A stretch of 5,363 nt of DNA from a virus (lineage: Duplodnaviria > Heunggongvirae > Uroviricota > Caudoviricetes). Positions 4,561 through 5,363 of the stretch are shown here, in pieces (the stretch's first letter is position 1; every line of letters begins with the position of its first letter). Location: positions 1-5,363 of IMG/VR virus record IMGVR_UViG_2913123054_000002; one strand, written 5' to 3'. A program made the translations under genes and the position numbers. Under the pieces are notes generated by a model. It saw only the letters and a program-made list of their open reading frames with translations, did not search any database and was not told the DNA's origin.

Positions 4561-4640
4561 CCTGGCCTGAGGCATTCACCACGGTAGGAATCGCAATGGC
4601 GGTGGCACTGGTTGTGTATTCGATTTGCCGCTGGGGATAA
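4557..4640 (+). CDS. 27-aa hydrophobic micro-protein (MTWPEAFTTVGIAMAVALVVYSICRWG), absent from the ORF track
   Basis: ATG at 4557-4559 overlaps the upstream stop (ATGA). A perfect SD AGGAGGT (4544-4550) sits at 6-nt spacing. One predicted transmembrane-like segment. The stop TAA at 4638-4640 lies 17 nt before the terminator stem. Confidence 0.45.
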   Translation: MTWPEAFTTVGIAMAVALVVYSICRWG

Positions 4641-4657
4641 AAACTGTCAAATAGAAA

Positions 4658-4676
4658 AGCCCCGATAGCCGGGGCT
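4658..4676. terminator. Bidirectional rho-independent terminator (AGCCCCG-ATAGC-CGGGGCT)
   Basis: 7-bp GC-rich stem with a 5-nt loop. On the minus strand it is followed by TTTTCTATTT, a strong U-tract. On the plus strand it is preceded by AAAA and followed by AAATTTAT, a weaker one. It sits between convergent genes ending at 4640 (+) and 4685 (-). Confidence 0.7.
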
Positions 4677-4684
4677 AAATTTAT

Positions 4685-4840
4685 CTACGATTCACATTTT
4701 GTGCATTTTGGAATTGGGAAGGCTTTTGCTTTCACTGGGTATACGCGTTTTCCTGATTCATCGTGATAGAAGCGACGGAACAAAATTTCGCAAGGTTCTC
4801 CACATTTACTGCATATTTTTTTATTAACAGTCTTTTCCAT
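4685..4840 (-). CDS. Small zinc-ribbon protein (51 aa, MEKTVNKKICSKCGEPCEILFRRFYHDESGKRVYPVKAKAFPIPKCTKCES), absent from the ORF track
   Basis: Reverse-strand ATG at 4840-4838 with AGGA 8 nt upstream; stop TAG at 4687-4685, immediately before the terminator, whose strong U-tract is on this strand. Two CxxC pairs (C10/C13 and C46/C49) are typical of a zinc ribbon. It is convergent to the upstream operon and lies in AT-richer DNA. Confidence 0.6.
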   Translation of the reverse strand: MEKTVNKKICSKCGEPCEILFRRFYHDESGKRVYPVKAKAFPIPKCTKCES

Positions 4841-5014
4841 AAAAGAGTTCCTGTATAAAAACACAAACTGTATTCCTGTTCAGTATTGCGTTTATCTACA
4901 GACCTGATACCCTTGCACATGTCTTTTCTGTGTGCTAAAGGGTGTCAGATCATTACGATCAACCTCCTTATCAATCACACTAGTTGCGATGCTGTAACAT
5001 CACAATCTCTATAG

Positions 5015-5052
5015 CCCCTTGCATCTTGAGTTTTCAGGACAAGGGGTTTTCT
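5015..5052 (+). terminator. Terminator-like extended hairpin followed by TTTTCT on the plus strand; alternatively a structured element in the minus-strand leader
   Basis: CCCCTTG (5015-5021) pairs with CAAGGGG (5040-5046). An inner stem TCTTGA (5024-5029) pairs with TCAGGA (5034-5039), including one G-U pair, around a GTTT loop. TTTTCT follows at 5047-5052. No U-tract follows on the minus strand. Confidence 0.4.
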
Positions 5053-5327
5053 ATGCTCATAACCGAGACCATCTGATCCTGGCGTAAACAAGCCCGTGGT
5101 GCAACCCCTTGCAAGCATGTAACTCATTGAAAAATGATCATTTTATCTGTTGACACGGAATAACAAACTGTCATTGTGCGGCTATGGCAAGTGGCAAATG
5201 CTTATAAATCATATGGATATAAATAGTACAGAAAGAGTTGTTTTCTCTAGGATATGAGTATGCGTCTAATGCTGATTGGTTGAATTTTGTTCTTGTTTTA
5301 AAGGGTAAGAGTTTAAAGTGTTGGCAG

Positions 5328-5363
5328 TGATGTATTGGATAGTTAGAATTGCTGCGGGTGCTT
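5328..5363 (+). CDS. Possible 5' end of a plus-strand gene running off the window (…VLAVMYWIVRIAAGA…)
   Basis: This is the only frame open from 5319 to the window end. Candidate starts are GTG 5328 and ATG 5340, with a weak GAG/AAGGG upstream. Only 12 codons are visible, so this is very tentative. Confidence 0.2.

Follow-up and report, generated by a model that had tools for sequence, protein, structure and literature searches.

A two-codon open reading frame in a lambdoid prophage as a probable by-product of a structured leader RNA

Structured leaders that sequester a Shine–Dalgarno (SD) sequence include RNA thermometers and the expression platforms of translational riboswitches. [quoted passage not shown] Toxicity of the bar type has been linked with rare codons, AUA being one, with a drained tRNA pool and with strong expression (PMC2490762). 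In E. coli, start-stop sites such as those of yecJ and hslR were detected by retapamulin Ribo-seq and were proposed to fine-tune the genes that contain them or to neutralize inadvertent starts, an early stop limiting the damage, and mutation of the stop so that the reading frame was extended interfered more strongly (bioRxiv 10.1101/520783). Upstream ribosome-binding sites (RBSs) and open reading frames (uORFs) in bacterial leaders are in many cases occupied by ribosomes, and some of them affect the main gene, the mechanisms being translational coupling or, where the main RBS is closely spaced, its direct occlusion (PMC13285730).

The locus described here lies in a 5,363-nt stretch of viral DNA, which is termed the window. 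This DNA represents the nin-like, early-right part of a Rac/Qin-like lambdoid prophage, and carries ydaV/DnaC-like, DUF1627, DUF977, DUF4014 and DUF551 genes on the plus strand, with hokD just past its end. A sequence-only reading of this DNA had picked out a two-codon minigene behind a perfect SD on the minus strand, and had likened it to bar. The analysis reported here considers it on balance probable that a structured leader RNA gave rise to this two-codon open reading frame as a lineage-specific by-product, and that the frame is not a conserved or bar-like element.

The two-codon open reading frame and the zinc-ribbon cassette

Direct reading of the minus strand bore out the arrangement that had been described, with AAGGAGGT at 4969–4962, an 8-nt gap, and ATG-ATC-TGA at 4953–4945 (ATG 4953–4951, ATC 4950–4948, TGA 4947–4945). 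The first of these elements is a perfect SD, AAGGAGGU, and the spacer (4961–4954) is TGATCGTA. The pattern AGGAGG-N4–10-ATG-NNN-TRA was found at this single site in the window, and dinucleotide-preserving shuffles of the window gave a mean of 0.03 matches, with at least one match in 6 of 200 shuffles. Such an SD–start–stop pattern is unusual for one 5.4-kb window; by extrapolation from the shuffles, a 5-Mb genome would contain a few dozen sites of this kind by chance, and fewer with the full 8-mer SD. The stop codon of the two-codon frame is located 105 nt 5′ of the zinc-ribbon gene start. A 50-aa open reading frame (4975–5127, minus strand) is present 5′ of the SD; it has no SD of its own and no Pfam or PHROG match.

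The zinc-ribbon gene (4685..4840, minus strand) encodes 51 amino acids (MEKTVNKKICSKCGEPCEILFRR...FPIPKCTKCES) and is preceded by a weak SD, AGGA, at 4852–4849. An exhaustive HMMER search with this open reading frame returned 12 further matches at E ≤ 1e-3, most of them proteins of 44–49 aa. Because most of these share the motif CxKCGxxCE[VI]IFRR...FPIPxCxC, the open reading frame is, as judged by comparison of the proteins, a genuine gene and a member of a family of 44–51-aa phage proteins. The earlier placement of the SD–start–stop string in the 5′ leader of this gene therefore stands, the gene being real and having a family of homologues. The cassette is closed by an intrinsic terminator (4648..4676, minus strand, with the site itself at 4676–4658) that consists of AGCCCCGGCUAUCGGGGCU and then a U-rich tail. 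This was the sole terminator-like site on the minus strand and it lies 3′ of the gene; since no terminator-like element is found between the minigene and the zinc-ribbon gene, the attenuator role that had been proposed for the minigene, at least as classical attenuation, is unsupported. A consensus scan of the minus strand detected no sigma-70 promoter, and manual candidates were weak, for example TTGTTA-15-TAAAAT near 5165–5139.

Between the cassette and hok lies a widespread module (5074..5363) that 1155 of 5426 complete E. coli genomes contain. To the left of this module stands either a leftward KilA-N gene, which is the usual arrangement and is seen in L002, or the leader with the zinc-ribbon cassette, and the first ~50 nt of the window's leader (5125–5075) are common to the KilA-N leader. 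The module probably carries the hok promoter, at 5321–5349 on the plus strand, where TTGGCA-17-TAGAAT fits a promoter for hok mRNA, together with whatever drives leftward transcription. The segment that contains the minigene and the zinc-ribbon gene (~4680–5073) is rare: among the 5426 complete E. coli genomes only that of strain A30 has it, and no deposited phage does.

The 51-aa protein forms one 90% cluster from 22 contigs, and over 764 nt ten of the cluster loci, together with A30, match the window with at least 97% identity. SD-ATG-ATC-TGA was kept in 11 of the 12 known copies, the exception being E. coli A30, which has TGG through a G at position 4945, where the other 11 close copies have A. 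Given that the copies are at least 97% identical, this retention says little, and the copies are uninformative as a conservation test apart from A30. In that strain, the change from UGA to UGG converts an A-U pair to a G·U pair in the basal helix P2a of the leader described below, and the MFE structure is identical (−39.5 versus −40.4 kcal/mol), so that in the predicted fold the stop codon is dropped while the pairing of the helix is kept. A30 and its nearest relative, L005, share 12 A30-versus-window differences. TGG is by parsimony the derived state, since the sister L005, and all other copies, keep TGA. Among the close copies, 12 sites vary in 234 nt of the leader, which is about the variability of its flanks.

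The UGG in A30 opens a frame of 73 aa (4732..4953, minus strand) that overlaps the zinc-ribbon gene out of frame. This product had no homologue but itself among 5.8 billion clusters and gave no Pfam or PHROG match, and it was rejected as a gene on the grounds that it is an orphan without a family match. In the A30 locus (L001; NZ_CP028745, 5962–6904), RefSeq/PGAP shows no gene at all between the DUF551-neighbour gene and hokD, thus omitting both the zinc-ribbon gene and the 73-aa frame, while the GenBank version had called the latter a hypothetical protein. The small zinc-ribbon gene family is systematically under-annotated.

A leader RNA and its family

The MFE folds divide the window's leader, on the minus strand, into the hairpins P1, P2 and P3. 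P1 (4957..4976) pairs GAUUGAU (4976–4970) with GUUGAUC (4963–4957) around the loop AAGGAG (4969–4964), and the SD-like sequence thus takes in the P1 apical loop and two nucleotides at the beginning of the 3′ arm. Alignment to the covariance model R2, which is introduced below, also sets the stretch 4957–4976 against the family P1 and has AAGGAG in the loop. A 5-nt linker (4956–4952), the last bases of which are the A and U of the AUG, leads into the long hairpin P2 (4901..4951), which is predicted at about −18 kcal/mol when folded alone and comprises the helices P2a (GAUCUGA:UCAGGUC), P2b (ACCCUU:AAGGGU) and P2c (GCACA:UGUGC) with a loop of 11 nt. P2 is an extended version of a hairpin, H1, that the sequence-only reading had started 3 nt past the stop codon. 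That boundary needs correction: every fold extends the stem outward and pairs G4951-AUC-UGA4945 with UCAGGUC at 4907–4901, so that the 5′ strand of the basal P2a helix is made up of the G of the AUG, the sense codon and the stop. P3 (4852..4900, core 4893–4859) is enclosed by a 4-bp helix, UGUA (4900–4897):UACA (4855–4852), that touches the zinc-ribbon SD, and P3 is homologous in sequence to P3 of the L017 and L056-type leaders.

The leader folds better than shuffled sequence, with z −4.2 for 4830–4944 and z −2.9 for 4835–4983. Two natural substitutions fall in P2: G4918A in L003 breaks a C-G pair of P2c and is uncompensated, and A4922U in L006 lies in the P2 loop. From these substitutions, upper P2 is not under strict constraint inside the window's lineage. 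Repeats were also noted on the minus strand between 5103 and 4909, with two copies of GCAAGGGG and one of the shorter GCAAGGG in direct orientation; the complements CCCCUUG and ACCCUU would permit alternative hairpins (1:2 versus 2:3). The GCAAGGGG/CCCCUUG repeats (5103–5015) were rejected as an attenuator chain, since 4990–5125 folds like shuffled sequence (z −0.3).

The UGA followed by a hairpin was also considered as a recoding site. A selenocysteine reading was rejected because the natural variant is UGG and not a Cys codon, and because the open reading frame is an orphan; the apical loop of P2, CAGAAAAGACA, moreover seems unlike a bacterial SECIS loop. A prfB-like +1 frameshift at AUC-UGA-C was likewise set aside, as tRNA-Ile should be unable to re-pair on UCU and the SD spacing would be wrong.

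Relatives of the zinc-ribbon protein surfaced only through the exhaustive HMMER search and an alignment-based scan, the latter yielding 36 relative-encoding loci from Rheinheimera, Erwinia, Citrobacter and Kluyvera genomes and from IMG/VR contigs. A single-protein scan of genome contigs found no relatives, and one locus from the single-protein scan of viral contigs (L013) was a false lead, namely an unrelated small Cys protein in a different context. In 31 of the 36 loci (L014–L024, L029 and L031–L049), a conserved element made up of P1, P2a GGAG:CUCC, P2b and P3 was present 5′ of the gene, examples of the core type being L018 1346–1471 and L038 882–1010. The order of the core type is the terminator of the preceding gene, P1, the motif GUGUGUAUGGAGG, the long-range helix P2, P3, and the SD-AUG of the small gene, with P2 composed of P2a GGAG(G):(U)CUCC, P2b ACCGC:GCGGU and P2c. 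Across 14 distinct core sequences, 86% of cells were paired, as against 35–54% with slid partners. Both sides had changed in 16 of 32 pairs, and none of 500 shuffles reached the observed values.

Two covariance models were used, R1 from the core type only and R2 from the core plus the L017 type. R1 recovered the divergent L017 type at E 2e-6 to 4e-9; P2a in these leaders is GCAGG:CCUGC in place of the core GGAG:CUCC, the helix being kept and the sequence replaced. Rfam 15 contained no family for the leader in the window or, even at E up to 5, in 17 related loci, and the window's one Rfam match, to asX2, was at chance level and fell on the terminator. Taken from these alignments and models, the family leader is a conserved, covarying RNA, absent from Rfam, in phages and prophages of Enterobacteriaceae and Rheinheimera.

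The same RNA was found 5′ of an unrelated 45-aa gene (MKAHDVNRDDFIYEHDKPIYVRSYCRVRFGELENVRQHFRSYPSC), where R2 gave 46–66 bits, in L056 (278–396, minus strand), L079 (4506–4624), L058 (1091–1210) and L067 (10793–10912, minus strand). Because it precedes this unrelated gene as well, the leader RNA can be regarded as a portable module for different small cargo genes, and each cassette of leader and small gene ends in its own terminator. In the Klebsiella phage ST13-OXA48phi12.4 (L083; MK422450), a core-type RNA and a zinc-ribbon gene occupy 4996–5298, and the cassette lies between XRE/ImmA genes and dinI/DUF1367, which is the moron slot of the window (lambdoid nin-like region). The MK422450 record annotates a hypothetical protein across the RNA (4996–5184) and leaves the zinc-ribbon gene unannotated.

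Other features were observed at these loci. In L016, L038, L041, L042 and further leaders of the core type, the loops of P1, of P2 and of the terminator hairpin upstream share the sequence (G)TTGAC(G/A); this could be a site acting at the DNA level or a loop, present in several copies, that binds a protein, and its spacing is unfit for a sigma-70 promoter. The loci L025, L026, L027 and L030 (~1275–1626) carry two tandem zinc-ribbon paralogues with a hairpin between them, and the leader RNA model gave no match there. In three of these four (L025, L027 and L030), an ATG-TGA start-stop with GAGGTGA 12 nt 5′ of it is located inside the coding sequence of the first paralogue.

The window was then placed against this family. 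The top match of R2 in the window was 4862–4981 on the minus strand, with 15.3 bits and an E-value, which is rough, of about 0.0026; R1 alone gave the same top location, but with 6.3 bits and E = 0.39. A profile built on sequence alone from leaders of the L017 type aligned with 4889–4844, which covers P3 and the start region (nhmmer E = 0.016), and in the MAFFT/RNAalifold alignment 10 of 10 counted P3 pairs were kept in the window, one of them changed from G-C to A-U. The window, L029 and L017 have one MFE layout in common, in which P1, a linker of 5 nt, P2 in three parts, P3 and the start region follow one another, and the window's leader stands directly 5′ of a small moron gene as leaders of the family do, most often of a zinc-ribbon gene. 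Note, however, that the window's P2a is GAUCUGA:UCAGGUC and not the core-type GGAG:CUCC. For P1 and P2, homology to the family would consist in architecture, position and a modest model score, with no alignable sequence. The minigene itself did not travel with the leader: the conservation check proposed with the sequence-only reading found an SD-AUG-N3-stop 5′ of the gene in 0 of 22 distinct homologous leaders scanned, and at the depth of this comparison conservation of the minigene fails.

Translation of the minigene and rival explanations

In the predicted fold, the minigene SD and AUG are both largely open, with probabilities of being unpaired, P(unpaired), of 0.74 and 0.72. The SD:anti-SD duplex with the 16S 3′ end was predicted at −12.9 kcal/mol for the minigene and −4.3 kcal/mol for the zinc-ribbon SD, and freeing the 30S footprint (4969–4939) was calculated to cost ~16 kcal/mol as against 9.4 kcal/mol for the zinc-ribbon start region. 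In these terms the minigene could plausibly be translated, because the −12.9 kcal/mol duplex roughly offsets the cost of unfolding, and from the footprint costs and duplex energies together net initiation is predicted to be modest, and comparable, at the two sites. When 4969–4938 was forced to be unpaired, P(unpaired) of the zinc-ribbon SD fell from 0.45 to 0.13. Any effect in cis would therefore be expected to be mildly repressive, opening of the minigene region lowering the accessibility of the zinc-ribbon SD, and a weak cis effect of a ribosome on the folding of P2 and the leader is possible.

The leaders of the family may themselves act in regulation. In the core type, the invariant CUCC strand can pair either with the upstream GGAG (P2a) or with the SD of the gene itself, and the MFE structure of L038 pairs UUCUCC with GGAGAA. 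The predicted anti-SD:start-region duplexes ranged from −6.5 to −15.7 kcal/mol and for 9 of 22 members were better than shuffles (p < 0.05). A copy of the SD sequence, such as CAGGUAA, stands in the P2 5′ strand of the variants L058, L056 and L067 (p 0.02–0.06); in the longest-common-substring test of SD mimicry (P2 5′ strand against start region), the other members and the window were not significant. For the window, the anti-SD:start-region and P1-loop:start-region duplexes were no better than shuffles. That the family leader works as a switch of SD, anti-SD and SD-mimic is a reasonable but weakly supported model.

One interpretation of these data, and the one favoured here, is that the leader RNA of a small zinc-ribbon moron gene carried by a lambdoid prophage, consisting of P1, a 5-nt linker, a long P2, P3 and the start region, has produced the two-codon frame in passing. 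AAGGAG would serve as the P1 apical loop and G-AUC-UGA as one strand of the basal P2 helix. Selection would act on the RNA fold, which would probably control how the small gene is translated by hiding its ribosome-binding site. A ribosome on the minigene would have to melt P1 and P2, and the only likely consequence would be a local one, a modest alteration of access to the zinc-ribbon start. Against this by-product reading, a perfect 8-nt SD at a spacing of 8 nt is rare by chance, and SD and start are both predicted to be mostly unpaired.

In an alternative that we regard as rather unlikely, the frame is a functional, cis-acting mini-uORF. Loading of 30S or 70S ribosomes on the P1-loop SD and AUG would compete with P2 folding, and would tune zinc-ribbon translation or mRNA stability, the minigene acting as a sensor of ribosome availability or as a 5′ stabilizer acquired in this lineage. 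Main-gene-modulating upstream RBSs and start-stops have been documented (bioRxiv 10.1101/520783; PMC13285730). The predicted accessibility of SD and AUG, net initiation energetics comparable to those of the zinc-ribbon start, the drop in P(unpaired) of the zinc-ribbon SD from 0.45 to 0.13 on opening 4969–4938, and the ancestral state of UGA among the sampled copies all agree with such a role. It is weakened by the absence of the mini-uORF from all distant homologous leaders scanned and by the tolerance of stop loss in A30; the predicted effect is also modest and comes from thermodynamic modelling only, and the distance of 105 nt to the gene start is too far for direct occlusion or coupling. 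It could further be that the three-hairpin leader is an uncatalogued, portable cis-regulatory RNA of the SD/anti-SD/SD-mimic type, rewired in the window so that a ribosome on the P1-loop SD and two-codon frame toggles P2. This is considered quite unlikely; were it true, zinc-ribbon expression would depend on ribosome availability or initiation capacity, and the switch would gate translation of small moron proteins of lambdoid and other enterobacterial phages.

If neither RNA structure nor minigene mattered in this lineage, the string would be pure coincidence in a non-functional spacer. Dozens of such patterns are expected per genome by extrapolation, the leader varies about like its flanks (12 variable sites in 234 nt), and the G-to-A change at 4918 in P2c of L003 is uncompensated; but the leader's fold is far better than that of shuffled sequence (z −4.2 and z −2.9), the covariance model match is at the expected place and the window's P3 is homologous to the family P3, and coincidence of this kind is judged unlikely. 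UGA-C is a weak termination context, and the frame might instead be the start of a 73-aa protein, either a remnant carrying a W3* nonsense change in copies other than A30 or a leaky start with low-level read-through of UGA. The frame is in register with a 62-aa open reading frame (4732–4920), tryptophan at the UGA would yield exactly the A30 product, and that product was annotated as a hypothetical protein in the A30 GenBank record. This explanation is nevertheless very improbable, given that the protein has no homologue beyond A30 among the 5.8 billion clusters and no Pfam or PHROG match, that its frame runs out of register across a gene shown to be real, that relatives have no such open reading frame, and that UGG is derived by parsimony, L005 and all others having UGA. 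A trans-acting toxic minigene like lambda bar, from which release of fMet-Ile-tRNA would sequester tRNA and inhibit host translation when peptidyl-tRNA hydrolase is limiting, is the most remote of the explanations. It has in its favour the same Met-Ile-stop layout behind an SD and a lambdoid prophage as carrier (PMC8012679), but the codon is AUC and not AUA, toxicity being linked to rare codons, high expression or Pth deficiency (PMC2490762), a stable G+C-rich helix and not an A/U-rich sequence follows, and there is no lambda similarity, no conservation and no evident strong promoter. Such a minigene would have been a second natural toxic phage minigene, which the evidence does not support.

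The leader RNA family is the novel result and a more interesting one than the minigene. It precedes at least two unrelated families of ~45–51-aa phage proteins, in the lambdoid nin-like moron slot and beside integrases. Small moron genes are poorly annotated, and an RNA module that marks them, and probably regulates them, would help to find them and would aid study of how prophages control accessory genes. The locus also illustrates that a textbook-looking SD–start–stop can arise as a side effect of constraints on RNA structure.

Comparison with described minigenes and leaders

The window minigene contains the common codon AUC and not the rare AUA, and ends in UGA and not UAA. AUC is read by the abundant major tRNA-Ile. 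The minigene is embedded in a stable G+C-rich helix, whereas bar lies in A/U-rich sequence, and it has no sequence or positional relation to the bar regions. A blastn search of 4600–5363 against 50,697 phage records gave no match over 4648–5073, and hence no similarity to lambda bar. What is shared is a two-codon fMet-Ile open reading frame behind an SD-like sequence and a lambdoid phage as carrier (PMC8012679). The architecture that prompted the comparison with bar is therefore present, as SD, AUG, one codon and stop with the fMet-Ile layout, and the likeness ends at the codon and at the lack of conservation. Toxicity of the window minigene would not be expected.

In general terms, the family resembles leaders that sequester an SD, in that its CUCC strand can pair with either GGAG or the SD of the gene. 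It differs from them in that the family motif has no Rfam match and that the window's version has no GGAG:CUCC. The likeness to upstream RBSs in bacterial leaders is that the window also has a predicted SD and start in an mRNA 5′ leader; the mechanisms of coupling and occlusion do not apply directly, because the stop in the window is 105 nt 5′ of the gene start. A closer conceptual parallel than bar is provided by the start-stop class, with which the window shares an SD and start followed by a near-immediate stop. The start-stops of yecJ and hslR are inside coding genes and have no sense codon, whereas the window minigene lies in a 5′ leader and has one. The UGG of A30, in turn, parallels the extended start-stops, in that it opens a 73-codon, out-of-frame open reading frame across the zinc-ribbon start.
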